From a virus, in the IMG/VR virus record IMGVR_UViG_3300045988_151631: a stretch of DNA of 42,177 nt, one strand, 5' to 3'. The translations under genes were made by a program, and so were the position numbers. This document shows, piece by piece, positions 7,924 through 42,177 of this stretch. Each line of letters starts with the position of its first letter. The first letter of the stretch is position 1. Below the pieces are notes generated by a model. It was given only the letters and a program-made list of their open reading frames with translations. It did not search any database and had not been told where the DNA came from.

Positions 7924-7926
7924 GCT

Positions 7927-8253
7927 TTAACTCTCCTTTATTCGTATTCCGTGAATATAAAGCATTAGTTTACGCTTGATTATGTATTCGGGCGTTTTAA
8001 ATCCTTTTGTGTCCTCAACGATTGTTGCCCCACATTGCTCATAGGTGAAGTCTGCTTTATAAGTGCAGGCACGCTCGGCAACCTTGCCGTCAATCCTCTG
8101 TGCCGGAATGAGCGTATATGTTACTTGCCTCTGCAAGTTCTTAATAACGCCCGCCCTTTCAAGGATTTTCAATTCGGCGTATCGTTGAGCTTCTTTTTTG
8201 CTGTCAAACATAATGCCGTCATATTCGGTTTTCTTTGCTTTGTATTTTTGCAT
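7927..8253 (-). CDS. DUF1064-type phage nuclease-like protein
   Basis: KYKAKKTEYDGIMFDSKKEAQRYAELK .. KADFTYE .. VEDTKG pattern. Confidence 0.7.
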   Translation of the reverse strand: MQKYKAKKTEYDGIMFDSKKEAQRYAELKILERAGVIKNLQRQVTYTLIPAQRIDGKVAERACTYKADFTYEQCGATIVEDTKGFKTPEYIIKRKLMLYIHGIRIKES

Positions 8254-8255
8254 AT

Positions 8256-9020
8256 CTAATACCGTGATTTTAAGATGTCATCTTTTAGGCTGGTATTTTC
8301 ACGAGCTCTTTTTTTGATTGCTTCGAGGTCATAAGTCGGTGGTCTTGTTATTTCTCCCGATTTTTCCTTTCGGGTTATTTGTGACCTGCTCCATTTACGG
8401 CACATAGCTTTCCAGCTCCGCATCGGTGCTCTTGCAACCGTCCAGCCGTTACCCTCGTAATAATCGTAAAAGTCTTGCGCATTTGTTTTCAAGGAATTTT
8501 CCGAGATATACCGCTTGATTTCGTCAAGCGAGGGAGCACTTATAAACATATCCGTAGTTTCTTTAATAGTCTCTCTCTTATGTATATTCTCTTCATTCTT
8601 TTCATTCTTTTCATTCTTGTTATAAAAAAAGTTTGTTGTTTGTTTGTTATTTGTTTGTTGTTTGTTTGTTGTTTGTTTGTTATTTGTTTGTTGCTCCGTG
8701 TCTATCAAGTCTTGATATTTCGCATAACCAAGCACTATTATGAGGGTATTTTTGTTTGTTGCTTTTTTGGAAATTTCGCCAGTTTTTTCTAATTTTTTTA
8801 GAGCCGAACGGACTTGTTGTGTTGTAAGCCCGTTTCGCGCCGCTATATCGGCAACAGAGGTCACAAAAGAGCCTTTTTCAATTTCGTGTCCGTGCCAAGC
8901 TGTGGCTTGATGATTAGCGTTTAAAATCAAATCAATAAATACACTCTTAACAGTCGGTTCATCGTACCATTCCCAATTGATAAACTTGCGGTGAAGCTTA
9001 ATCCAACCCTGTTCTGCCAC
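8256..9020 (-). CDS. Replisome organizer / DnaD-like replication protein
   Basis: N-terminal WIKLHRKFINWEWYDEP winged-helix-like region, low-complexity repeat linker, C-terminal DFYDYYEGNGW .. SWKAMCRKW. Confidence 0.7.
   Translation of the reverse strand: MAEQGWIKLHRKFINWEWYDEPTVKSVFIDLILNANHQATAWHGHEIEKGSFVTSVADIAARNGLTTQQVRSALKKLEKTGEISKKATNKNTLIIVLGYAKYQDLIDTEQQTNNKQTTNKQQTNNKQTTNFFYNKNEKNEKNEENIHKRETIKETTDMFISAPSLDEIKRYISENSLKTNAQDFYDYYEGNGWTVARAPMRSWKAMCRKWSRSQITRKEKSGEITRPPTYDLEAIKKRARENTSLKDDILKSRY
8592..8696. repeat. Tandem repeats inside the organizer gene (3 x 9 bp TTCATTCTT, then 2 x 33 bp GT-rich unit), candidate phage ori
   Basis: 9-bp copies at 8592, 8601 and 8610. 33-bp period between 8631 and 8696. 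Confidence 0.6.
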
Positions 9021-9032
9021 TTTTTACCACCT

Positions 9033-9257
9033 CTACGCTTCCGTAAGATAGTAACGGCTGTAAATAACGGGTTCTCCGTACCTATTTAAAGCTTTTTCTT
9101 GCTTGGAGGTGATGTTATACCCCTTGTGCTTTAAATCCCAAATACGCCCCGACAGGCGCGTACAGCCGTATTGTTCAAATGCTTCAAGGCTTGTTATACC
9201 TCCGTAAGTCCTCATATGTTCCAATATCTTGTTGCATTGAGAGTTAGTGCTACTCAC
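9033..9257 (-). CDS. Small winged-helix DNA-binding protein (74 aa)
   Basis: ILEHMRTYGGITSLEAFEQYGCTRLSGRIWDLKHKGY pattern. Confidence 0.6.
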   Translation of the reverse strand: MSSTNSQCNKILEHMRTYGGITSLEAFEQYGCTRLSGRIWDLKHKGYNITSKQEKALNRYGEPVIYSRYYLTEA

Positions 9258-9276
9258 GCTGATACCTCCTTACCGC

Positions 9277-9690
9277 CTAAAATGGCAAATCATCATCGTC
9301 AACGGGTTCAAAGTCCAAATTTATATTATCAGGTGCTTTGTAGCCCTCATTCTTTTTGTAAACCTCGTTTTCCGATTCGGCTTTTGAACCGCAGAAATGT
9401 ACGCGATTAACAACAACCTGAAATGATGAACGCTTTTCGCCGTTTTGGTCTGTGTATTGACTTTGGTCTATTGAGCCTTCAACGGCAATCATAGAGCCTT
9501 TGTGGAAATAGCGGGAAATAAATTCCGCTGTTTGTCTCCACGCCGTAAAGCGTATAAAGTTTGCTTTTTTACCGTCTTTGCCGAACGGGTCATCAACGGC
9601 GATTGTGCCGGAACAAACCGATAAACCGCTTTGCGTTGATTTCAATTCAGGGTCAGCCGTAAGCCTACCCATAAGTACAACTACATTCAT
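9277..9690 (-). CDS. ssb: Single-stranded DNA-binding protein
   Basis: MNVVVLMGRLTADPEL OB-fold start and acidic tail DDDDLPF. Confidence 0.9.
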   Translation of the reverse strand: MNVVVLMGRLTADPELKSTQSGLSVCSGTIAVDDPFGKDGKKANFIRFTAWRQTAEFISRYFHKGSMIAVEGSIDQSQYTDQNGEKRSSFQVVVNRVHFCGSKAESENEVYKKNEGYKAPDNINLDFEPVDDDDLPF

Positions 9691-9702
9691 TTTTTTAATC
9701 TC

Positions 9703-9996
9703 CTATAAATAATTTTTTCCGAATATCTCTATAAACTGTTGTGTGCTCCAACCGTAATATTGCATAGCCGCTCGCTGCCCTATTCGGCGCAACTGTTGCA
9801 TGGCCTCTATGTTGTGATGTACGCCGTTAGGCGGTTCGTTGTGGCAACTGTGGTGCAGGCGGACTTTAAGGCCGTATTTTTCGCTTTTTTTACGATATGC
9901 GCCGCCAAATATGTGGTGACACTCAAAAGCCCCATATCCGCCGCAGAGGAAGCACCTTTTATCGTTCTCGTCTTGCAATATGGATTTCATTTCCAA
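9703..9996 (-). CDS. HNH-like zinc-binding protein (NinG/Rap-like?)
   Basis: CFLCGG .. ECHHIFGG .. HHSCHN .. GVHHN. Confidence 0.5.
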   Translation of the reverse strand: MEMKSILQDENDKRCFLCGGYGAFECHHIFGGAYRKKSEKYGLKVRLHHSCHNEPPNGVHHNIEAMQQLRRIGQRAAMQYYGWSTQQFIEIFGKNYL

Positions 9997-10511
9997 CCTC
10001 CGATAAGCATTGCAAGCTCCGCAGGGGTCATTGTTTCAATTCCTTGTTCTTTGCAATCTTGAACAACTAAATCAATAAGCCTATGCATCTGTGCTGTGTC
10101 ATATGTACTGCTTCCGGAATAAAGAATTACATTTGTGCAGCCTTCCGTTTTGCTTTCAAAAGGTTCTGCTATCCAGCCCAAGCCGTTACTGTTCCAACCT
10201 TGCATTAACGCCTCTAAGTCTTTGTCGCGAACACAAACAATGGTATTGTTGTCGCCGATTTCACGAACATAAGAGCGATATATTTCGCCTACGGGAATTT
10301 CCGTTTTAGCGGCGAGCTTGTGAGCCAACACCCAAAAATAAGCGTTAGCGTCAAGCGTGCGCCGCTTCTTGAATTTACAAAGTCTGCAAGTCAATTCTTG
10401 ATTTTGCAATTCTTCGGTTTCGGTTATGTTCTGTGAGCTTTCAAGCGTTATCATCATTTTGCCCGTCAGCATATTGCGGGCAATATCCTTGATTTGGCAT
10501 TGAAATTCCAT
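9987..10511 (-). CDS. NinB/Orf-like recombination mediator
   Basis: RTLDANAYFWVLAHKLA resembles lambda NinB RSLDQNRKLWACLGDV. Sits next to the annealase. Confidence 0.5.
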   Translation of the reverse strand: MEFQCQIKDIARNMLTGKMMITLESSQNITETEELQNQELTCRLCKFKKRRTLDANAYFWVLAHKLAAKTEIPVGEIYRSYVREIGDNNTIVCVRDKDLEALMQGWNSNGLGWIAEPFESKTEGCTNVILYSGSSTYDTAQMHRLIDLVVQDCKEQGIETMTPAELAMLIGGWK

Positions 10512-11206
10512 TACATCGCCGCCAATCCGTTATAACAAGCTTCGTAATCAACATCGCTTAATTCCACAAGTGATGTTACCTTGTATTTATGGCAAAGCTT
10601 CTCAATCGCAACGCCCTTGCTTTCCGCAAGCTGAGTTAAACGCTCAACATCTTTTTTTAATTGCCCTTTAGGTGCGGATTGTGCCCTTGCATATCCAAAT
10701 TTAAAGCAATCTTTTTTTGTCTTTTCATCGTATATGCAAAGCTGAGTTATTACGCCGTTTTCGTAGGCGATATGCTTAACAATGAAGTGGTCGTTACAAG
10801 TGGGTTTGCCGTTATGGTCTGTGGTTATGTTGCAATCGTCGCTTTTAACCCATATGAATGGGGCAGAATAGAGCGCTAATCCAATCGACCATGAGAAGCA
10901 CGCACGCTTAAAGGAGTCGCTGCTCTCCGATTTCTCTTTTTCATAATTGCCCTCGGTGCCACAATCATCTTTCCATATCCATTCATCACCGCACTTAATG
11001 CCAACGGAACAAAAAAGGTTGCCTTTGCACTCATAATGCTTGCGCTGCCAATTTTGCTTTCCGACTGTCTCGTTTAATATTTTCATATCGCACCGCGCGT
11101 CCTTATAAAGAAGCAACGATACGCCGTTCGGCTTAGCCATAGCGACACGCACTTGTATTTCGTCCGCCCTTAATTCGCGGAATGTTAAATCTTTATTCTC
11201 GCTCAT
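10511..11206 (-). CDS. Rad52/Sak-like single-strand annealing protein
   Basis: ILNETVGKQNWQRKH .. KDDCGTEGN .. SESSDSFKRACFSWSIGLALY matches the Rad52-family core pattern. Confidence 0.7.
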   Translation of the reverse strand: MSENKDLTFRELRADEIQVRVAMAKPNGVSLLLYKDARCDMKILNETVGKQNWQRKHYECKGNLFCSVGIKCGDEWIWKDDCGTEGNYEKEKSESSDSFKRACFSWSIGLALYSAPFIWVKSDDCNITTDHNGKPTCNDHFIVKHIAYENGVITQLCIYDEKTKKDCFKFGYARAQSAPKGQLKKDVERLTQLAESKGVAIEKLCHKYKVTSLVELSDVDYEACYNGLAAM

Positions 11207-11307
11207 CTTTTTCCTTTCTTGCTTTATTCACAAACAAAGCTATTTCCATATTAGGAATGCCTGTTGTGTTATCATCGCCGTATTTGGCGATATATTCATC
11301 AATGTAT

Positions 11308-11499
11308 TTATCCATATATCTGTTCCCGGAACTCGTCATTCAAGCAGTCAATGCAATAATCGTCGCCGTCAACACGGTAATAATAATCGTCACATTCACC
11401 ACCGCATATGTCGCATATGACGGTTTTGTCGCATTCTCTGCTCGTTCTGCAATTGTCGCAGTCCCATGGGGAACAGCCTCGTGCATTACAACGCTTCAA
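11308..11499 (-). CDS. Small Cys-rich protein (63 aa)
   Basis: Multiple CxxC pairs. Confidence 0.7.
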   Translation of the reverse strand: MKRCNARGCSPWDCDNCRTSRECDKTVICDICGGECDDYYYRVDGDDYCIDCLNDEFREQIYG

Positions 11500-11891
11500 A
11501 AGTCGCTCCCCCCATTCAAGTATTCAAGCATTTTTTCCTCTTCGTCCTTTTCTTTGCGCTTGTATCGCTCATTAAATTCTTTTGTTGCGAACATATCAAC
11601 GCTTGCCACCATGGCATAGCAGTAAATCATCGGATTCCCGTTTGCATCAAGTTTTGTTGTTGAGCATATATGCGCATCGCAGGCGATTTCCTGCCCAACA
11701 TTGAAGTGCTCCTTTATAAACTCACCGACCGCGTAATATGCTTTGCAACAGATGAAGTCTGCTTTTTTTCGTTGTTCGGGTACTTTCGACCAACGGCGCG
11801 GCACGGCAACCGAAAACCTTACGCAGCCTATCTGCGGGTTTTCGTATTCAACATCGGTTGCAAGCCGACCGACAAAGCTAAATGAGTTCAT
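11496..11891 (-). CDS. Divergent SSB-like OB-fold protein (131 aa)
   Basis: ATG 11891 (ATGA overlap with upstream stop). MNSFSFVGRLATDVEY start and C-terminal LNGGSDF tail. Confidence 0.55.
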   Translation of the reverse strand: MNSFSFVGRLATDVEYENPQIGCVRFSVAVPRRWSKVPEQRKKADFICCKAYYAVGEFIKEHFNVGQEIACDAHICSTTKLDANGNPMIYCYAMVASVDMFATKEFNERYKRKEKDEEEKMLEYLNGGSDF

Positions 11892-12154
11892 TTTATCCCT
11901 TTCATTGCGTATTCGTAGAACGCAGGCGCGAACACAAGCTTTGACTTGCCTAATTCGCAAGCGGGGAAATCATCCCGCTTAAATAAATTCTGCACGGTTA
12001 GCTCGCTCCACCCTGTCAATTCCATAACATCTTTAATTGTTAAGAAGCGAAAGAGCGTTTTTATCCTTTCGCCACTCTCCTCAATTTTTTGAAATGTGTT
12101 TAAAAGTTCAGCTGCCATTTTCAATTCCTCGGCTGCATTTGTTTCAATCCTCAT
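11888..12154 (-). CDS. Excisionase/MerR-like HTH DNA-binding protein (88 aa)
   Basis: LTIKDVMELTGWSELTVQNLFKRDDFP. Confidence 0.6.
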   Translation of the reverse strand: MRIETNAAEELKMAAELLNTFQKIEESGERIKTLFRFLTIKDVMELTGWSELTVQNLFKRDDFPACELGKSKLVFAPAFYEYAMKGIK

Positions 12155-12434
12155 TTTCTTTTTCCTTTCCGTTCACAACAAGCAAAAGTTCGCGGTTTTG
12201 GCGGGATAATTCCGCAGAATATGATTTGTAAAACTCCGCTTCGCTTTCCATGTTATGTATATCGCTTATATATTGACTTATGATTTTGCAAGAGCTTTGG
12301 CAAGCGTAATCTTCCTGCTTTTCCTTTGCTTTGTGCTTTTCGTCTGCGAGCGCAAGCGAAATTAAAAACACACCCGCAAAAATCGCGCCGATTACCACGC
12401 CTGCGCAAAATGCCGAAATCTCAATTTTTGCCAT
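12144..12434 (-). CDS. Small membrane protein (96 aa)
   Basis: One TM helix ISAFCAGVVIGAIFAGVFLISLAL. Confidence 0.65.
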   Translation of the reverse strand: MAKIEISAFCAGVVIGAIFAGVFLISLALADEKHKAKEKQEDYACQSSCKIISQYISDIHNMESEAEFYKSYSAELSRQNRELLLVVNGKEKENED

Positions 12435-12621
12435 TCGTCATAATCTCCTTTAGAATCAAATCGTTATATACTTCGTTCATCGCTTGCATATCGGCGGTTG
12501 CTTGTTCCCTCATTTGTTCCTTTTCTGCTTTTCGTAGAAAATTACAAATAAGCTTGCTTATAAGCGTAGCCGGTACGGCTAAAAACGCGATTAAACCGAT
12601 AAAAAATAGCCCTGTCAACAT
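12421..12621 (-). CDS. Small membrane protein (66 aa)
   Basis: N-terminal TM helix, GGAG SD. Confidence 0.65.
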   Translation of the reverse strand: MLTGLFFIGLIAFLAVPATLISKLICNFLRKAEKEQMREQATADMQAMNEVYNDLILKEIMTNGKN

Positions 12622-12624
12622 TAT

Positions 12625-12711
12625 TTATCTCCTTACTTTGCTGAGTAATAAACCCCACATAGAAAATATTGTTACGCAAATTATTGTTGTAACTGCTATT
12701 GCTGTATTCAT
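12625..12711 (-). CDS. Hydrophobic micro-protein (28 aa, not in track)
   Basis: ATG 12711 preceded by GGAGG. Single TM-like segment. Confidence 0.4.
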   Translation of the reverse strand: MNTAIAVTTIICVTIFSMWGLLLSKVRR

Positions 12712-12792
12712 TCTTCTACCTCCGTAAATTCGCCGTTTACAAGTTTGTAAAATACATTTTCTTTTATTTTCTTTCCGTCTACATATTCTGTC

Positions 12793-13245
12793 TTAACGCA
12801 CATTGTAAAAACAATTAACCGAATCTGAGCCGCTGTTTGCAATCCTGCCATATGAGCCGCTGTTTGCAATCGTGCTATCTGAGCCGCTGTTTGAGTTTTT
12901 ACATTCTTTTATAGTTTTTTCAACGGGCGTTTTCTCGAATTGAAAATCAATGCTTGCTTTGACGAATGCGGGTAAATCAAGCTTTGCGCCTATCTTTAAT
13001 TTTTTTGTGCAATATTTCTTGTTATCATCGGTGAGCACTTCGTCTAACGCTTCAACCTCTGCAAATTCGGTAAGTTCGCCGTTGTTATCGATGAGTGGGT
13101 AATAATCGAGTACATCGAGCGGATTTTCGCAAAAGTGCATACCACACTTGCAAACTTCCACATTTTCTTCTTCAAATATGGTGTTTTCGGCATATTGTTT
13201 GCCTTTGCACACTAAACCCTTTTCAAATGCTTTATATCCTTTCAT
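12793..13245 (-). CDS. DUF7666-like protein ending in a short ANSGS repeat tail
   Basis: KGYKAF..GLVCKGKQY .. CKCGMHFCENPLDVLDYY pattern. C-terminus encoded by 27-bp tandem repeats. Confidence 0.55.
   Translation of the reverse strand: MKGYKAFEKGLVCKGKQYAENTIFEEENVEVCKCGMHFCENPLDVLDYYPLIDNNGELTEFAEVEALDEVLTDDNKKYCTKKLKIGAKLDLPAFVKASIDFQFEKTPVEKTIKECKNSNSGSDSTIANSGSYGRIANSGSDSVNCFYNVR
12826..12895. repeat. 2.6 copies of a 27-bp tandem repeat (TGAGCCGCTGTTTGCAATC..)
   Basis: Copies start at 12826, 12853 and 12880. Confidence 0.85.
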
Positions 13246-13802: not shown

Positions 13803-14015
13803 TTATTTTTTTACTTTCGGTAGAGTCTGTGGTAAAAAAATAAATTCCATAGGAATTTGTGTTATATTGCTGATTTTTTGTAATTGAACAGATGAAGGAC
13901 TTGTTTTCCCACTTTCCCAATTTTTAATTGTGTCAGGGCACACCGACAGCAATTTTGCCAGGTCAGTTTGCTTCAAATTCGCATTAACACGGCACGCTTT
14001 TAAAGATATTTGCAT
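13803..14015 (-). CDS. Cro-like XRE-family HTH regulator
   Basis: LKQTDLAKLLSVCPDTIKNWESGKTSP. Divergent from the CI-like gene. Confidence 0.8.
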   Translation of the reverse strand: MQISLKACRVNANLKQTDLAKLLSVCPDTIKNWESGKTSPSSVQLQKISNITQIPMEFIFLPQTLPKVKK

Positions 14016-14125: not shown

Positions 14126-14154
14126 TTGACTTTTGCAAAGCTTTATAATATCAT
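14126..14154 (+). promoter_or_regulatory. Repressor-side promoter
   Basis: TTGACT, 17 nt, TATCAT. CCACAA(A)G motifs lie between the two promoters. Confidence 0.45.
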
Positions 14155-14180
14155 ATATGTATAATCAGGAGGTGAAAACT

Positions 14181-14498
14181 ATGACAGATGAAGAGTTAGA
14201 AAAAAAGCATAGACAAAATTTTACTAAAAAGTTAAATTATTATATGCAGCTCAAGCACAAAAGGCAAGAGGATATTGTTGTTGACTTAGGAATTAACAAG
14301 TCCACAATTTCTACTTGGTGCAGGGGGCAAAAAATGCCACGAACAGCAACAATTCAAAAATTAGCTACCTACTTTGGCGTAACGGTTGCCGATTGCTTTG
14401 CTGTTTTAGGCTCCGGATCGGAACCGAAAGCTAAATTATCAACTGCCGCAAGGCAATTGCCGCCCGAACACACGGATAAAGAGATAATGTTTTTATAA
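14181..14498 (+). CDS. CI-like XRE-family repressor (105 aa)
   Basis: ATG 14181 after AGGAGG. VDLGINKSTISTWCRGQKMP HTH. Confidence 0.75.
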   Translation: MTDEELEKKHRQNFTKKLNYYMQLKHKRQEDIVVDLGINKSTISTWCRGQKMPRTATIQKLATYFGVTVADCFAVLGSGSEPKAKLSTAARQLPPEHTDKEIMFL

Positions 14499-14920
14499 TT
14501 TTTATCGGCCTTATCATTAAATTCAAACGCAAACAAAATATTGCGCAGTCCGGCGGGAGCGGTGCCGAAATTCTTATAAATTTTGCACGGCAGACCGGAA
14601 TCGTCGCTGTCGGCGGAAAATCTCAGCGAATACGCGCGGTTTAAATTCTCAATATCGGCGGTGATATACAGAGAATCATCATTCTCTGCAAAATCGCTGC
14701 TTTGAACAAAGAAATGGAAGTAAGCGCAATTATCGCCGTAAAAATATTGCATATAGCCCGTGGCACTGTCGCCCTCGAGTTCGAGCCACTCGGCGGATTC
14801 ATTCGCAGTCCATTTTTCAAATTCGTTTACATATTGCGAATCATAGGCAAAAGCACGAAAAGGGCACAGAAAAGCCGAAACAAAGCAAATAATGTATATC
14901 ACGGCAATTTTCCTTTTCAT
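14369..14920 (-). CDS. Secreted protein of unknown function (183 aa)
   Basis: ATG 14920 after GGAGG. Signal peptide KRKIAVIYIICFVSAFLCPFRAFA/YD. Confidence 0.7.
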   Translation of the reverse strand: MKRKIAVIYIICFVSAFLCPFRAFAYDSQYVNEFEKWTANESAEWLELEGDSATGYMQYFYGDNCAYFHFFVQSSDFAENDDSLYITADIENLNRAYSLRFSADSDDSGLPCKIYKNFGTAPAGLRNILFAFEFNDKADKNYKNIISLSVCSGGNCLAAVDNLAFGSDPEPKTAKQSATVTPK

Positions 14921-15118
14921 TTCCCGCACCTCCGCAAGCCGAATTGATTATATGTGCCGAAATTCTATATAAAATAAGTTTATATTCACATGTTGCATTT
15001 TGTCAATAAATTGCGAAATTTTCTGCTTTTTGAACAAACTAAAAGAATGCTAATTGTTCATTTTAACCAATCAAATCGCCTTGTAAACCGCACCTGAATG
15101 GCCATGTTAATCTTTGGC

Positions 15119-15147
15119 TTGACAAATTCACCCTCTTATATTAAAAT
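15119..15147 (+). promoter_or_regulatory. Near-consensus promoter driving the tRNA locus
   Basis: TTGACA, 17 nt, TAAAAT, about 20 nt upstream of the tRNA half copy. Confidence 0.65.
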
Positions 15148-15164
15148 AACAGGGCAGTAAAAAG

Positions 15165-15206
15165 CATCGAGGTGTAGCGAAGTTTGGCTATCGCACCTGC
15201 TTTGGG
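15165..15206 (+). repeat. Exact 42-bp copy of the 5' half of tRNA-Pro (3 leader nt through the anticodon and G37)
   Basis: CATCGAGGTGTAGCGAAGTTTGGCTATCGCACCTGCTTTGGG is identical to 15334..15375. Confidence 0.95.
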
Positions 15207-15336
15207 TGACGAAAGCGAGCGCTGCCTGCGGCAGATGAAGCGAGCAATGTGAGCGGAGGCGAACAGTGCGACGATTTTGCAAGAGGGCGACCAAAGCAAC
15301 TTTAACCGCCATTATCATATAATAATTTAATATCAT

Positions 15337-15414
15337 CGAGGTGTAGCGAAGTTTGGCTATCGCACCTGCTTTGGGAGCAGGGGATCGCAGGTTCAAATCC
15401 TGTCACCTCGACCA
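15337..15414 (+). tRNA. tRNA-Pro: tRNA-Pro (anticodon UGG) with encoded CCA
   Basis: Hand-folded cloverleaf: 7-bp acceptor, 4-bp D stem, 5-bp anticodon stem, loop TTTGGGA, 5-nt variable loop, T loop TTCAAAT. Confidence 0.9.
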
Positions 15415-15417
15415 CGA

Positions 15418-15450
15418 GGGGTATGTTTGAAACATATCCCCATTTGTTTT
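15418..15450 (+). terminator. Terminator after the tRNA
   Basis: GGGGTATG..CATATCCCC stem then ATTTGTTTT. Confidence 0.7.
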
Positions 15451-15538
15451 AAATATGCTGATATTTGGCTTAGTTATGCGGTTTGTGGCTTTTTCGCAAA
15501 TTTAAGCAACTATTTTAAAACTCACTCAAATTAACACG

Positions 15539-15571
15539 AATTGCATTCAAATTGCATTCAAATTGCATTCA
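15539..15571. repeat. 3 x 11-bp perfect tandem repeat AATTGCATTCA
   Basis: Copies at 15539, 15550 and 15561. Confidence 0.9.
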
Positions 15572-15680
15572 ATTTTTTCTCTAATAGGTAGAATTTATTT
15601 TTTTGAGGTTACAAAAAAACTACTGTATTTTTGTAACCGCTAATTTGTAAATTAACCTTGTTTTTTTGGGTGTTTTCAAT

Positions 15681-15760: not shown

Positions 15761-16210
15761 CTATTTGCGGTTGTTGTCAATTATACTTACTATATCATTA
15801 TCAGCCATACCATTGTCAACGGCATAACGATAATTACAGTCACAAAGTCCCTCATCATCCTCTTGTAGCTTCTTGGGTGTAGCAAGATACTTTCCAGTAA
15901 AGCGTAAAATTTCTTTTCTCCGTTTGTTCGTCAACAATGCATATGCTATCTGTTGCGAGCAATCATCTAAAGTACAATATAATGAAATAATGTTCTCATC
16001 AACAACACGGGGCTTAGTGCCAAATATATAGTTTGCATCAATATTGAACATATGACACAGCGGCACTATATATTTTATGGGAATAGGCTTTATGCCCTAT
16101 TCCCAAGCATAATAAGTTGCTGCACTAACGCCAAGGCTTGATGATGCCGCTTTAACGCTTGTCTTGCTTGATTTGCGTATTTTCCTCAGTCTGTTAAGTA
16201 TTCCTTTCAT
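15761..16210 (-). pseudogene. XRE-family HTH gene interrupted by one in-frame TAG (codon 38)
   Basis: ATG 16210 .. SSLGVSAATYYAWE-TAG-GIKPIPIKYIVPLCHMFNIDANYIFG is colinear with HTH_3 proteins. Track ORF 15761..16066 is the downstream part. Confidence 0.7.
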
Positions 16211-38313: not shown

Positions 38314-38874
38314 TTATTTATTATGTTCGTTGATAATCCTATAAAGCGATGTTCGCCCCACGCCTAAGCACTCGGCAAACTCTGCTCCTTTTATTTCTCC
38401 ATTACAATATTGTGCGTACAATCTTTGGTATTCTTCTTCATCGTAAGTCTTTTTCGGCCTGCCGAATTTCGTACCTTTCAGCTTTGCGGCTGCTATGCCC
38501 TCTCTTGCTCTTTCTAAGGTTTGCTCTCTCTCTAACTCACTGAGTGCGGCAAAAACCGTTAACATAAACTTTCCTTGCGGTGTAGATGTATCAATATTTT
38601 CTTTCTGCACCACAAGCTCAACATCTTTTGCCTTTAAGCAATCAACTATACTGAGGAAGTCCCTTGTGCTCCTTGCAAGCCTTGATATACTCTCAACTAT
38701 AAGCACATCGCCCTCTCTTACATAGCTTTCCATTGCTTTAAGTGCGGGTCTCTCTCTCTTTGCACCGCTCTCCTTATCTACGAATATCTTTTCAACACCT
38801 AATCTCTCCATAAGCAAATCTTGTCTATCCGTATGCTGTTGAGCTGTACTCACTCTTACATATCCTATTTTCAT
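38314..38874 (-). CDS. Small serine recombinase (resolvase/invertase family)
   Basis: MKIGYVRVSTAQQ (catalytic Ser motif), LIVESISRLARS, C-terminal HTH. 186 aa. Confidence 0.9.
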   Translation of the reverse strand: MKIGYVRVSTAQQHTDRQDLLMERLGVEKIFVDKESGAKRERPALKAMESYVREGDVLIVESISRLARSTRDFLSIVDCLKAKDVELVVQKENIDTSTPQGKFMLTVFAALSELEREQTLERAREGIAAAKLKGTKFGRPKKTYDEEEYQRLYAQYCNGEIKGAEFAECLGVGRTSLYRIINEHNK

Positions 38875-40397: not shown

Positions 40398-40700
40398 ATG
40401 AAAAAGCAATTTGAAGAAATCGGACATTTGGGAGGCAATCCAAACATTGAAATAATAGAATATAAAAACAAATTCTACTGCCTTAGCGGTTGGAATGGTG
40501 AAAGATATTTCAATTGTTGGGAATGTGATAAGCCGTTTTGGTTTAACGGTAAATATTCTGCAAATCAAAAAAGCGATGAAAAATATACATTTATACCAAT
40601 CTACAATTATCAAATTGAAAACATCGACCTTGAAGCAATAGAGGAAAATCCAGATGAATGGCTGAACGCGGTAGAAACAGTTGATTTTGATATACAATAA
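40398..40700 (+). CDS. Hypothetical protein (100 aa)
   Basis: SD GAAAGGAAG. Confidence 0.7.
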   Translation: MKKQFEEIGHLGGNPNIEIIEYKNKFYCLSGWNGERYFNCWECDKPFWFNGKYSANQKSDEKYTFIPIYNYQIENIDLEAIEENPDEWLNAVETVDFDIQ

Positions 40701-40728
40701 TCGCAGAAAGGAAAAAAAAGGTAGAATT

Positions 40729-40956
40729 ATGAGTAAAAAAATGACAGCAAGAGAACTTGCAGAAATGGTAATCGAAGAAAATAGGCCGTTTGATTATTCG
40801 TGGTTGCGACACATCAGGCACACTTATTCGTCAAAAGAGTTGAAAGAATGGGCAAAAGATAATATTGAATACTTTACAACAGGGAAGGAGAGTAAACAGC
40901 TTATAGGCCGAGCCGCAACTATCTTATTGAGGGAAGTAATGGCAGAAGTTTGGTAA
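40729..40956 (+). CDS. Hypothetical protein (75 aa)
   Basis: ATG 40729 after AAAGG. Track start 40681 is an unlikely extension. Confidence 0.65.
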   Translation: MSKKMTARELAEMVIEENRPFDYSWLRHIRHTYSSKELKEWAKDNIEYFTTGKESKQLIGRAATILLREVMAEVW

Positions 40957-41036
40957 CGCAGAGTGACCGCCCTTTATGGGCGGGTAATGCGGCTAAGAGC
41001 GGTCACAAGCCCGCCGCAAAAAAAGGAAGTGAAAAA

Positions 41037-42177
41037 ATGGAAGATAATATATATCATTTCGCCCCGGTGGAGTGCTTCGCGATTGATGAACCTTGCGACG
41101 AGGCGGAAGCTGAGCAGCTCGCGAACACCGCTGCGCAGGCGGTAGCCTTCGCAGGCTTGCAAGCAACAGAAGCAATATACACCACCGCGCCGCAGCTCGT
41201 GCGCGTGCATTTTGGCCTTGATTTTGCATCTGCTTATAGAGTGCCAACGCTTTTAAACAGAATTGAAAAAAGTTTAAATGCTTACTTGAACCGCGACGGC
41301 TGCCGCTGTTATCTCAACAACGGTTTGACCGTTGAAATACCGAGAGCGCAGCGGCAAACGGTGCGTATGCGTCAATTCTTGACAACAAAATACGAAAGTA
41401 TGCGACTGCCCGCCGTCCTCGGCATTGACAGCAACGGGCACCAACTTGTTATTGACCTTGCCGATGCTCCGCACTTGCTCATTGCAGGCCAAACAGGCAG
41501 CGGCAAAAGCGTTTGTTTAAATGATATTTTAGTATCAATTTTACAATTCGAGCAACCCGCGGATGTTAAATTTCTGCTCATTGACCCAAAGCAAGTAGAA
41601 TTGTCAAAATATGCATGTATTCCGCACCTTGCAGGGCCGATTGCAACAACACCGCAAGAAGCATTGAATGCGCTGCATTGGGCAGTTGACGAGATGGAAC
41701 GCCGCTATACAATATTAAGGCAAAGAGGAGCGGCAGGGCTTGACCTTGCGCCGGGTCTCTTTCCTCGCCTTGTTATTGCTATTGATGAGCTTGCCGACCT
41801 TATCCAAGCGAGCAAGAAAGAGGTTGAAACGCTTATTTCAAGACTTGCAGCCAAAGGCAGGGCGGCGGGTATTCACTTAATCGTTGCAACTCAATATCCA
41901 AGCGCAAAAATCATAACGGGCGCAATAAAGGCAAACATCCCAACGCGCATAGCGTTCAAGACCTCTTCAAACTCTGATAGCCGCGTTATACTTGATATGG
42001 TAGGAGCCGAAAAGCTCACCGGCAAGGGTGACGGCTTGTTCTTTGCACCTGCTTCAAGCGTTCCGCAACGCTTCCAAGCTTGCTACTTGTCGCCCGAAGA
42101 GATTAACACCGCTTGTCATTATGCGTGGCTTAATACACCGCAGGGAAGGAGGGGAACGAATGGAGAAGAAAAAAAAC
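41037..42177 (+). CDS. Soluble FtsK/SpoIIIE-family DNA translocase-like ATPase (391 aa with wrap to 134)
   Basis: Walker A GQTGSGKS, Walker B LVIAIDELADL, IHLIVATQ, PTRIAFKTSS. No TM helices and no gamma domain. The ORF has no stop before the window end. Confidence 0.85.
   Translation, partial: MEDNIYHFAPVECFAIDEPCDEAEAEQLANTAAQAVAFAGLQATEAIYTTAPQLVRVHFGLDFASAYRVPTLLNRIEKSLNAYLNRDGCRCYLNNGLTVEIPRAQRQTVRMRQFLTTKYESMRLPAVLGIDSNGHQLVIDLADAPHLLIAGQTGSGKSVCLNDILVSILQFEQPADVKFLLIDPKQVELSKYACIPHLAGPIATTPQEALNALHWAVDEMERRYTILRQRGAAGLDLAPGLFPRLVIAIDELADLIQASKKEVETLISRLAAKGRAAGIHLIVATQYPSAKIITGAIKANIPTRIAFKTSSNSDSRVILDMVGAEKLTGKGDGLFFAPASSVPQRFQACYLSPEEINTACHYAWLNTPQGRRGTNGEEKK
42079..42177. repeat. 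Terminal direct repeat, identical to 1..99
   Basis: See the first feature. Confidence 0.95.

Follow-up and report, generated by a model that had tools for sequence, protein, structure and literature searches.

The tRNA-Pro gene of this phage genome, the copy of its own 5' half that precedes it and the spacer between the two are, as judged by their identity with host contigs, host chromosome carried by the phage. Quite probably this host DNA has taken the place of the end of a temperate siphovirus that carried the integrase, and the spacer belongs to a small unit, here called type A, which is itself an insertion that took place in the host. The features of the locus are collected in Table 1; the window is the whole stretch of 42,177 nucleotides that was analysed.

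Host DNA around the tRNA-Pro gene

The host block of the window aligns to the contigs L008 (CP091724.1), L021, L025 and L030 with 96.1-96.9% identity over about 1,050 aligned positions, and all four alignments begin at 14384 and end at 15414; a further contig, L023, is 99.7% identical to window positions 15061-15414. Host homology halts exactly at the 3' end of the tRNA. Within the block lie the beginning of a host gene (182 codons), the native promoter of tRNA-Pro, the half, the spacer and the tRNA. The corresponding neighbourhood in the host is made of genes for LrgB, HMA, flavodoxin and DUF3793 proteins and of a hypothetical gene, followed by the divergently transcribed tRNA-Pro, with no phage genes. 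The duplication is thus ordinary host sequence captured by the phage, a possibility that the preliminary description had itself raised against its own proposals, because half and spacer are found in L030, L021, L025 and L008 with no prophage at the tRNA.

Table 1. Features of the host block and of the adjoining phage DNA (window coordinates)
Feature	Position	Strand	Basis
Cro-type HTH gene, first of the early leftward operon	13803..14015	-	HTH_3, E 4e-11; gene order as in L034
cI-type HTH repressor, truncated at the host junction	14181..14498	+	HTH_3 and HTH_26 matches
Truncated host gene: 182 codons, 4 phage-derived codons and stop	14369..14929	-	comparison with L030 protein
Host chromosome block, 1,031 bp, Anaerotruncus-like (Acutalibacteraceae)	14384..15414		identity with host contigs
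Native host promoter of tRNA-Pro, TTGACA-17-TAAAAT	15119..15147	+	promoter scan and host conservation
Displaced 5' part of host tRNA-Pro (CAT and gene bases 1-39)	15165..15206	+	exact repeat
Type-A insert	15207..15333	+	homologues in three lineages; fold; covariance model
P0 strand CCAAAGCA	15291..15298	+	complements tRNA positions 29-36
Intact tRNA-Pro(UGG)	15337..15414	+	ARAGORN, Rfam, 78/78 identity with host genes
Phage-family att core, 18 bp, ATCCTGTCACCTCGACCA	15397..15414	+	comparison with L034
Phage P' arm	15415..15620	+	terminator 15418-15440; 11-bp repeats 15539-15575

The host gene at the left end of the block shares 181 of its 182 host residues with the L030 protein; beyond the junction the two are no longer similar, the full host protein having about 313 aa. 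The truncated gene matched no family of Pfam or PHROG. ORF186 was considered as a small recombinase and discarded, as it has no family match and corresponds to the N-terminus of a host protein of secreted/membrane type.

The preliminary description was accurate on the elements of the locus. ARAGORN recovers the intact tRNA-Pro(UGG) with its encoded CCA as the sole tRNA of the window, with a Rfam tRNA score of 64.8 bits, and all 78 bases are shared with host genes. The promoter described as strong has 11 of 12 consensus matches in the promoter scan, and it is conserved across all syntenic host loci. The hairpin 3' of the tRNA is terminator-like; it is supplied by the phage and differs from the terminators of the host loci, and the scan lists no terminator-like site between half and tRNA in the window. 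A repeat search of the window also returned the 42-bp exact copy (15165-15206 equal to 15334-15375), which is part of a 47-nt direct repeat whose starts are 169 apart, with a 127-nt spacer; in 42 kb of sequence, chance would not be expected to produce an exact repeat of 42 bases. The copy had been described as three leader bases followed by tRNA positions 1 to 39, which is correct for gene bases but not in standard tRNA numbering: since gene bases 36-38 form the anticodon in the ARAGORN prediction, gene bases 1-39 are canonical 1-37, and the copy ends one base 3' of the anticodon.

At three host loci, here called plain (L009, L005 and L007), the promoter lies directly 5' of an uninterrupted tRNA-Pro, and the distance from the promoter to the half in the window is that to the start of the intact gene in these loci. 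The half is therefore the 5' part of the host gene as it originally stood, with the native promoter still in front of it, and what was inserted, at tRNA position 37/38, is the spacer together with a new 5' half. The unit measures about 190 bp and consists of the type-A insert, an AT-rich linker and the fresh 5' half, by which the gene is regenerated.

The type-A insert and its predicted fold

Half and insert occur in three host lineages, each with a different tRNA-Pro sequence and a half matching it; in all three the two halves that flank type A are identical to each other, and the identity with the tRNA ends after G37 in G1, G2 and G3. Presence and absence can be compared at orthologous loci beside the same Fe-ADH gene, which are occupied in L022, L027, L120 and L121 and empty in L122-L126 and L128, where a single tRNA gene directly follows the same leader. 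The half is absent at L002, L011 and L017, while L116 holds a tandem array of halves. Between half and tRNA the insert has 127-165 nt, the full form being of 151 nt; 24 of these are absent from the window copy, with the deletion junction near 15241-15246. In the window, the structured domain extends from 15196-15206 of the half to 15301, and the AT-rich linker covers 15302-15333.

The RNA of half and insert is predicted to adopt a three-way-junction fold, which was derived leaving out L120 and L121. Its pairing is conserved at 97-98%, against 26-49% in slid controls, and its values were reached by none of 500 shuffles. Compensatory changes across the three lineages concern 5-6 pairs in the hand-drawn structure and 9 according to RNAalifold. 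The closing helix, P0, is present in the hand-drawn structure and, independently, in that of RNAalifold; it would be formed by CCAAAGCA (15291-15298) with UGCUUUGG of the half (15198-15205), the latter being found again in the gene at 15367-15374. The motif CAAAGCA is kept in all of at least 17 loci, those devoid of the half included. The window copy scores 87 bits with the covariance model, versus 147-161 bits for intact copies, and the MFE z-scores are only -1.8 and -2.0. The window scan against Rfam 15 at gathering thresholds returned only tRNA and Twister-P5, and the inserts of L021 and L026 had no Rfam match at E<=1. Conservation of the fold may be explained by transcription of the insert as tRNA leader, which would keep its RNA foldable.

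Several other roles of the spacer were considered and rejected. It has no Rfam match that would make it a hammerhead, HDV, hatchet or twister ribozyme; indels of 24, 25 and 1 nt and the lack of a conserved ORF speak against a coding sequence; a -10-like TATAAT, seen by eye, has no usable -35, and the scan listed no sigma-70 promoter there. A role as insulator against mispairing of the half was also dropped, as the alternative folds have equal energy and the MFE structure of the window is the mispaired one. L026 had been considered as an integrase junction, but its neighbour gene looks NUDIX-like by sequence.

The most likely origin of the unit is a non-autonomous integration footprint, or a miniature element, that displaced the 5' fragment of the tRNA. 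In the tDNA signature of genomic islands, an intact tDNA is accompanied by a cognate end fragment in the same orientation, placed upstream when it is a 5' fragment; 5' fragments are the minority, with 159 of 3919 Islander islands (PMC4383910). Type A resembles this signature (Williams 2002; Islander, PMC4383910) in orientation, in the upstream position of the 5' fragment and in its end in the anticodon loop, as well as in the identity block of about 40 bp and in the fact that tRNA-Pro(UGG) is an evident hot spot, with other elements at its 3' end. However, Islander islands carry a tyrosine integrase between the two tDNA parts and span 2-200 kb, whereas here 127-165 nt of non-coding DNA lie between them; no full-length relative is known, the fold is of RNA type and conserved, and the halves are identical in three lineages. 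Since an integrase is lacking, the insert has only 127-165 nt and no long form was found, the unit is not filed as an island and is called only footprint-like.

The search for relatives covered several collections. No integrase-bearing full-length relative was found with the exact block-2 motif and the spacer 31-mer in the viral collection, or with the exact block-2 motif in the metagenome collection; the genome collection was scanned with a 39-mer of the half as the only query. BLAST of the insert against phage and plasmid collections had no match, nor did exact IMG/VR scans with the half, the half-spacer junction, the spacer 31-mer and the conserved leader motif. BLAST with the half-insert-half sequence of L116 retrieved only tRNA-Pro genes and its own record, the covariance model had no match in 1.3 Mb of unrelated gut viral loci, and no description of a tRNA-half leader motif was found in the literature searched. 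Two observations speak against the footprint origin: compensatory base changes are unexpected for the double-stranded arm sites of an integrase, and identical flanking halves are not automatic when a foreign element comes in.

CIMEs of streptococcal ICEs measure kilobases, and the ICEs from which they descend can be identified. They share with type A the att-type repeats flanking recombinase-less DNA and the presence/absence polymorphism at orthologous sites; type A differs in its length, since about 190 bp is roughly the size of an attP alone. Mobilisation of the unit by an integrase acting in trans is conjecture.

A possible reading, to which we give some weight but which we do not favour, sees half and type A as a functional structured leader, or a small RNA, of the host tRNA-Pro rather than a mere integration scar; it could act, for example, in precursor folding, in processing or in tRNA-Pro supply, and the 5' half would be integral to it, with its anticodon arm forming the closing helix. 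The conserved fold with its compensatory pairs (5-6 to 9) across three lineages agrees with it, as do the location of most G2 substitutions in unpaired positions, the persistence of a P3-like helix, AAGAGGGCG and CAAAGCA where the half is lost, the strong promoters upstream in all three lineages and the fact that halves track their own tRNA in each. However, independent deletions (one in the window and L023, another in L008) disrupt the fold in G1, the half is gone in L002, L011 and L017, and sister species with the same neighbour gene and the same tRNA do without the insert; the MFE z-scores are only modest, the stretch between half and tRNA in the window showed neither a terminator nor another expression platform, and the insert belongs to no Rfam family. 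This reading partly overlaps with that of a captured host locus, and the route of the block into the phage is the same in both.

In a stronger and rather unlikely form, type A would be an undescribed structured-RNA element of about 190 bp, specific for position 37/38 of tRNA-Pro(UGG) in gut Clostridia, which regenerates the gene with the 5' half of its target and whose RNA has a function of its own. Such an element could be an 'attP-only' miniature mobilised in trans, or could duplicate about 40 bp of its target; in the model its RNA would be closed by the helix with the displaced anticodon arm.

The insertion point is also that of tRNA introns. In archaea and eukaryotes, tRNA introns at 37/38 form a helix with the anticodon; to our knowledge, the splicing endonuclease is absent from bacteria. 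Type A has in common with these introns the insertion point, a 3' part that can pair with the anticodon and its neighbours, and a branched structured RNA. Conversely, the insert is not followed by a 3' exon, but by a second 5' half and then by the 3' half, and it differs from bacterial group I tRNA introns in having no match to group I or other Rfam ribozymes.

These similarities would suit a tandem duplication of tRNA-Pro, whose upstream copy gained an intron-like insert at 37/38 and lost its 3' half. The insert is indeed at the canonical intron position, and the 3' part of it that pairs with the anticodon region is followed by AGCA in G1 and G2, equal to tRNA positions 38-41, or by AGCAGG(G) in G3, equal to 38-44; the linker has about the length of a 3' half, and in G2 its ACCUC is able to pair with GAGGU of the half. 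However, a T-arm remnant is not detectable, the orthologous empty sites hold one gene right after the same leader, and more steps are needed than for a single insertion, all of which makes a duplication improbable.

In gut Oscillospirales, the host gene for tRNA-Pro(UGG) thus appears as a crowded integration hot spot. One of its occupants, which recurs, is a very small insert that lacks an integrase, has a conserved fold and comes with a 5' half matching the tRNA. If this insert were mobile or functional, it would represent a new small element or RNA class.

Attachment site, proposed aberrant excision and predicted expression in the phage

The preliminary description had placed the locus at the attachment region of the phage, and this was confirmed by a prophage of the same family (L034), which sits at the same tRNA in the same host lineage and is 98.5% identical to window positions 7926-12800. 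The end of this prophage shows, in order, YopX, cro, cI, a tyrosine integrase (PF00589, E 4e-30), an arm, an 18-bp fragment of the tRNA 3' end and host DNA; the core and the host flank that follows are identical to L030 in 238 of 238 bases. This comparison locates the att core of the family in the 18 bp at the 3' end of the host tRNA-Pro(UGG) and shows that the integrase used is of the tyrosine type. The core reaches the CCA end and the tRNA gene is rebuilt on integration; in the lysogen, the intact tRNA, with all the DNA upstream of it, adjoins the P' arm of the phage. An 11-bp repeat, AATTGCATTCA, is present three times at 15539-15575 in the P' arm of the window and twice in the P arm of L034, and these repeats are putative arm-type sites. 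An attP is recognised by a core common to attB, by flanking arm-type repeats and by an integrase next to it; core and repeats are those of the segment 15397-15414 with the 11-bp repeats, and not of the half.

The P arm and the integrase, both present in L034, are missing from the window, and no integrase was found among its larger ORFs that were scanned. Furthermore, the repressor gene is interrupted: its phage part spans 14181-14383 and continues in a 38-codon tail of antisense host DNA, and similarity to the homologue in L114 stops at ...ATYFGV, that is at nt 14383/14384, which places the cut at codon 68. The junction 14383/14384 lies inside two genes, and its flanks share no sequence. A relative sharing the immunity region of the window was not found; thus, we infer the phage-side partner of the illegitimate join from a repressor that is 52% identical. 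A near-identity search of the window against GenBank phages, an exact-pattern scan of IMG/VR for the junction between tRNA and P' arm, and an exact-protein look-up of ORF 15761-16066 had no match. No tRNA is present in the examined parts of the phage relatives L031, L032 and L034, and the sequences of the integrase-bearing relatives, which have no tRNA of their own, stop short of this region or pass beyond it.

All this is consistent with an aberrant excision, the window genome being a specialised-transducing-like product of the lambda-gal/bio type. One illegitimate recombination would have joined a point in the upstream host gene to a point in the phage repressor gene; the released circle would retain attL together with 1 kb of flanking host DNA, whereas P arm, integrase and repressor C-terminus would be lost. 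The lack of an integrase in the window would be due to this event, and the product would probably be unable to lysogenise. As in lambda gal and lambda bio, the captured DNA is contiguous with one att junction and is exactly the stretch of chromosome next to the prophage in lysogens; the opposite end of the prophage has lost phage DNA, a single novel junction without homology is present and size is nearly unchanged (42.1 kb, versus 43.4 kb for the contig of a relative). Differently from those phages, the present one is an uncultured Clostridia phage from a gut metagenome assembly, not selected in the laboratory, and the DNA captured is a tRNA locus; moreover, the substitution runs into the repressor gene, so that the product is probably lytic-only. 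The phage would thus offer a natural snapshot of the acquisition of a host tRNA gene, with promoter, leader and part of the neighbour gene still recognisable, joined at the att core at the price of the integrase and of an intact repressor.

The junction at 14384 is on record from one assembly of one sample (MEGAHIT contig k99_94997 of ERZ27260705), and in a prophage tRNA and P' arm are in any case joined at attL, which would also suit an assembly chimera or a prophage rearranged in situ instead of a free phage with host DNA. However, a graph chimera needs a shared 99-mer, and the phage and host sides of 14384 have no visible similarity, which makes it unlikely. The genome is of circular type, with a 99-bp terminal repeat and 42,078 bp of unique sequence (the contig of a relative has 43,368 bp), and the assembly path closes as a 42-kb circle with a full phage gene set. 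Deletion and substitution are also internally coherent, with one junction and the integrase end missing. We therefore hold the chimera or rearranged prophage to be quite improbable.

A further interpretation had seen in the half an att scar, or attP, belonging to this phage and due to an integrase that crosses over in the anticodon loop. The locus does lie between the lysogeny and late modules, and an end in the anticodon loop is a classic footprint of tRNA integration; however, this breakpoint is not the crossover site of the phage, whose family uses the 18-bp tRNA 3' end seen in L034, with its own arm repeats and integrase, and half and spacer occur, flanked by host genes, in host loci where no prophage is seen at this tRNA, which leaves very little room for such a scar.

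The half had also been proposed as a decoy for anticodon nucleases or other tRNA-targeting defence, with the phage tRNA replacing the cleaved one. In favour are the strong promoter upstream, which predicts that the half is transcribed, and the fact that phage tRNAs countering tRNA-targeting defence are known. Countering tRNAs are mentioned in PMC10865867. The proposal is very unlikely, as the anticodon stem of the half is without its 3' strand and positions 29-36, with the anticodon, are paired in the conserved fold, the same arrangement is found in the host chromosome without phage, the integrase-bearing relatives, whose sequences stop short of this region or pass beyond it, have no tRNA of their own, and the window spacer is a deletion variant whose missing 24 nt disrupt the fold. 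The tRNA itself, identical to host genes in 78 of 78 bases, would be cleaved like that of the host: an anti-defence tRNA is expected to differ from the host one and to be maintained in the phage lineage, and here neither is seen, with no sequence change able to evade a nuclease. Nor does the locus fit tRNA-dependent lysogeny, where the core has about 10 bp, the host tRNA is not rebuilt and a separate phage tRNA complements it (PMC10865867); here the 18-bp core rebuilds the tRNA.

Differently from phage-encoded tRNAs, the tRNA of the window is a host gene with a host promoter and part of a further host gene, and oddities of phage tRNAs should be checked against the host before a function is assigned. 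In the captured host locus, transcription from the host promoter at 15119 would produce half, insert and tRNA as one precursor, ending at the terminator supplied by the phage; RNase P would then free one more host tRNA-Pro of the ordinary kind, and the half would be discarded with the leader.

Origin of the tRNA-Pro block

ARAGORN, Rfam, a repeat search and a signal scan confirmed the preliminary description of this locus, a tRNA-Pro(UGG) preceded by a copy of its own 5' half, a spacer and a promoter and followed by a terminator; the half-tRNA at 15165-15206 is a real feature, and its exact part, shared with 15334-15375, is 42 bp long. The two copies are separated by a G+C-rich spacer of 127 nt. 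The half consists of CAT and gene bases 1-39, i.e. canonical positions 1-37, and therefore ends one base past the anticodon. A scan of the window found no terminator-like site between the promoter and the hairpin that follows the tRNA.

Features of the window around the tRNA-Pro locus and in the phage genome
Feature	Position	Strand	Basis or remark
cro-type gene	13803-14015	-	faces the cI-type gene
cI-type HTH gene	14133-14498	+
'ORF186'	14369-14929	-	first 182 codons of host hypothetical protein; 181/182 identical to L030
Promoter TTGACA-17-TAAAAT	15119-15147		promoter scan
tRNA-Pro(UGG)	15337-15414	+	sole tRNA in window; ARAGORN; Rfam 64.8 bits
Terminator-like hairpin	15418-15440
Three tandem copies of 11-bp AATTGCATTCA	15539-15575	+	downstream of tRNA
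Serine resolvase	38314-38874	-
ORF	40681-40956	+
Twister-P5 self-cleaving ribozyme match	40957-41014	+	61.2 bits (gathering score 37.6), E 1.8e-10
FtsK/SpoIIIE-type ATPase	41178-42177	+	spans terminal repeat

An exact scan of GTDB representative genomes found the 39-mer of the half in 18 tRNA-Pro loci, which belong to gut Clostridia (Acutalibacteraceae, 'Anaerotruncus' and Ruminococcaceae). An Anaerotruncus sp. chromosome (L008, CP091724.1) and three metagenome contigs (L021, L025, L030) are 96.1-96.9% identical to window 14384-15414; all four alignments begin at 14384 and stop at the final base of the tRNA, which is itself 78/78 identical to the host genes. Loci of this type are ordinary chromosome, with the gene order LrgB, HMA, flavodoxin, DUF3793 and a hypothetical protein of 306-331 aa, and a divergent tRNA-Pro; in five other loci (L011, L017, L002, L028, L029) DUF1846 lies past the tRNA. 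ORF186 is a fragment of the same hypothetical protein; it breaks off at the junction, where four phage-derived codons take over. The similarity of the phage repressor to its L114 homologue stops at ...ATYFGV, exactly at nt 14383/14384, and its final 38 codons are antisense host DNA. These alignments show that the block 14384-15414 is host chromosome.

The host contig closest to the captured DNA is L023, with 99.7% identity to window 15061-15414. Its region 1-2700 contains a Tn916-type integrase and excisionase that reach to about 60 bp from the tRNA-Pro promoter, on the upstream side; thus, a conjugative transposon has inserted next to this locus.

Phage attachment site and anatomy of the window

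The phage genome, with nearly all its genes on the minus strand, encodes an SPP1-type portal, a terminase, an SU10-type capsid protein, a tape-measure-sized protein and a tail fibre, together with a CHAP lysin, an SSB, an MT-A70 methylase, a small serine resolvase and an FtsK-like ATPase. As the preliminary description had stated, no integrase was seen: neither a tyrosine integrase nor a large serine recombinase occurs among the larger ORFs scanned. The serine resolvase and the FtsK/SpoIIIE-type ATPase occur in an integrase-less genome, where they may act in plasmid-like maintenance or in multimer resolution; the ribozyme match lies directly 3' of ORF 40681-40956 and upstream of the ATPase gene. 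The window corresponds to MEGAHIT contig k99_94997 (ENA assembly ERZ27260705), and its 99-bp terminal direct repeat (1-99 and 42079-42177) has the length of the assembler's k; it is therefore a sign that the assembly path closes into a circle, of 42,078 unique bases, rather than a terminal repeat of biological origin.

Among close relatives in IMG/VR, L031 and L032 match window 15761/15924-22951 with 93-96% identity, and their contigs stop before the tRNA. A third one, L034, is 98.5% identical to window 7926-12800 and reads, in the tRNA orientation, YopX, cro, cI repressor, a tyrosine integrase of 379 aa (PF00589, E 4e-30), an arm, an 18-bp core, and a host terminator with its flank. The core, ATCCTGTCACCTCGACCA, is the 3' end of tRNA-Pro, and core and onward flank are identical to L030 at 238/238 bases; this boundary is an attR. 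The integrase-side arm of L034 contains two copies of AATTGCATTCA (reverse complement of about 295-316), the motif found in tandem in the window; these repeats are likely arm-type integrase binding sites. A second motif, TAGTTATGCG, is common to the L034 arm and to the window downstream of the tRNA. The terminator after the window's tRNA is unlike any host terminator, and the stretch downstream of the tRNA is, by its sequence, the phage P' arm. The attR of L034 and the P' arm of the window therefore place integration of this phage family at the last 18 bp of the tRNA, and in a lysogen the P' arm abuts an intact tRNA and all the host DNA upstream of it.

The window accordingly has this attL with a further 1,013 bp from the host beside it, and at 14384 the host DNA runs into the interior of the repressor gene; the P arm and the integrase are missing. 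A single illegitimate join inside a lysogen would yield exactly this circle; its size, 42.1 kb, agrees with the 43.4-kb contig of L032. Lambda gal/bio classically form by such a join in a lysogen, and the aberrant excision proposed here would be alike, so that on the phage side a known mechanism has been caught in nature. Lacking the integrase and with a truncated repressor, this variant is probably lytic-only. The junction at 14384 is on record in one assembly only; however, a graph chimera needs a shared 99-mer and there is no visible sequence similarity across the junction, which makes this explanation unlikely.

The half and the type-A insert in host lineages

In the plain loci L009, L005 and L007, the tRNA is uninterrupted and identical or nearly so, and a homologous promoter immediately precedes it, at about the distance that separates promoter and half in the window. 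It follows that the upstream half is what was originally the 5' part of the gene; the spacer and the second 5' half form a unit, lying at position 37/38, that regenerates the tRNA gene. The earlier suggestion of an att scar was right in kind but named the wrong owner, since the scar-like feature predates the visit of the phage, which uses a different part of the tRNA as its own site.

Three lineages carry the half and the spacer; the latter is termed the type-A insert. In the first, G1, to which the captured DNA belongs, the full-length spacer is 151 nt (L021, L025, L030); a deletion of 24 nt between CGAGC repeats is common to the window and L023, in L008 a different 25-nt stretch is missing and the half has one mismatch, and L002/L028/L029, L011 and L017 retain only the last part of the spacer, its first part and the half being gone. 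The second, G2, was found by a metagenome scan for the conserved motif (L019, L020, L022, L024, L026, L027); its tRNA-Pro(UGG) has a distinct D-arm, variable loop, T-loop and genomic context, the spacer is homologous, and the upstream half matches the lineage's own tRNA. The third, G3, is MT839022.1 (L116); it carries a tandem array with a period of 190-203 bp, which starts with promoter, half, type-A spacer, half and an unrelated type-B spacer with TTGACCAC repeats, and ends with a different half, a second type-B and an intact tRNA-Pro. This record (L116/L117), deposited as 'Bacteriophage sp.', has three 5' halves, DUF4238 genes and two tandem tyrosine integrases, and looks like a bacterial chromosome or integrative element rather than a phage.

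Beside the same Fe-ADH gene, four orthologous loci are occupied (L022, L027, L120, L121) and six are empty (L122-L126, L128); in the latter the same tRNA follows directly on the same promoter and leader. Related species are therefore polymorphic for the presence of the insert; gain is the simpler reading, though the insert may instead have been lost. In the occupied G2 loci L022, L027 and L120 a further hairpin-containing segment of about 24-30 nt (ACAAACAATGAGCAATGCTCATTA) lies in the native leader about 32 nt before the half, with ACATAT on either side. The empty orthologues lack this segment, which is a small insertion in its own right or else what remains of an older unit.

Fold and readings of the unit, and other elements at the locus

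Indels of 24, 25 and 1 nt mark the type-A insert as non-coding; Rfam gave no match, and BLAST found nothing similar in phage and plasmid collections. In the conserved fold, tRNA positions 29-36 of the half (UGCUUUGG) pair with CCAAAGCA near the 3' end of the insert (P0); P1 is broken by tandem G-A/A-G mismatches and resumes with two more pairs; P2 is CUGCC-NNN-GGCAG with a variable loop, and P3 is GCAAAA/UUUUGC in G1 and G2 and GCGGU/ACCGC in G3. The junction, AAGAGGGCG, is invariant. When the hand-drawn structure is applied to eight sequences, pairing holds in 98.5% of cells and five pairs are changed on both sides; 0/500 shuffles match this, and pairing in slid controls is 27-49%. RNAalifold independently recovered the same helices with nine compensatory pairs, and with L120 and L121, obtained later, one P1 pair shows the series C-G to U-G to U-A; the fold evidence is nevertheless limited, because only three lineages are available and the first structure was drawn by hand.

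In the hosts, the 5' fragment lies upstream of the tRNA and points the same way, breaks off within the anticodon loop and shares a block of about 40 identical bp with the intact gene; this geometry is the recognised signature of tyrosine-integrase integration, 5' fragments accounting for 159/3919 Islander islands (PMC4383910), and such events generally leave partial tRNAs as remnants (PMC9897764; bioRxiv 10.1101/2020.12.28.424599). An integrase may thus have produced the unit, which differs from a plain scar in its tiny, constant size with no long form found, in its RNA-type covariation, which is hard to reconcile with double-stranded integrase arm sites alone, and in its matched halves in three lineages. 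On this basis we rank first a non-autonomous footprint or miniature element with some structural constraint on its transcript. The host feature is then a variation on a known footprint that also has a conserved RNA fold. The main rival, a genuinely functional leader RNA, draws on the fold and its compensatory pairs; however, deletions break this fold in window/L023 and L008 (covariance-model scores of 87-89 bits vs 147-161 in intact copies), the half is dispensable in five loci, and the insert is absent from sister species. Tandem duplication followed by an intron-like insertion is a minor rival and ranks last.

In the phage, the host promoter would drive a single precursor running through half, insert and tRNA to the phage terminator, from which RNase P would free an ordinary host-type tRNA-Pro; half and insert would be degraded as leader, the whole block being passenger DNA. 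When the whole precursor is folded, the displaced half rivals the true 5' half equally for the 3' half of the tRNA (-80.5 vs -80.5, -94.1 vs -93.2 and -88.9 vs -90.9 kcal/mol), and the MFE structure of the window is the mispaired one, so that the half would more likely be a burden than a benefit. A decoy role, also proposed earlier, is not supported: the tRNA is the host's own in sequence, the half has its anticodon base-paired in the conserved fold, no tRNA occurs in those parts of the relatives that were examined, and the window's insert is a deletion variant.

The tRNA-Pro(UGG) gene is visibly an integration hot spot, with differing elements 3' of it in the window, in L019, in L020 (two tandem integrases and a MobL relaxase) and in L022 (an integrase). 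In L026 (300-700), a second tRNA-Pro copy stops after the anticodon stem (..GGGAGCAG|TTTT..), incomplete on a 1.3-kb contig, and is followed by a gene NUDIX-like by sequence. L120/L121 (700-2415) have a large serine recombinase in two pieces, one with Resolvase and the other with Recombinase/Zn-ribbon/DUF4368; its end lies about 100 nt past the 3' end of the occupied tRNA-Pro.
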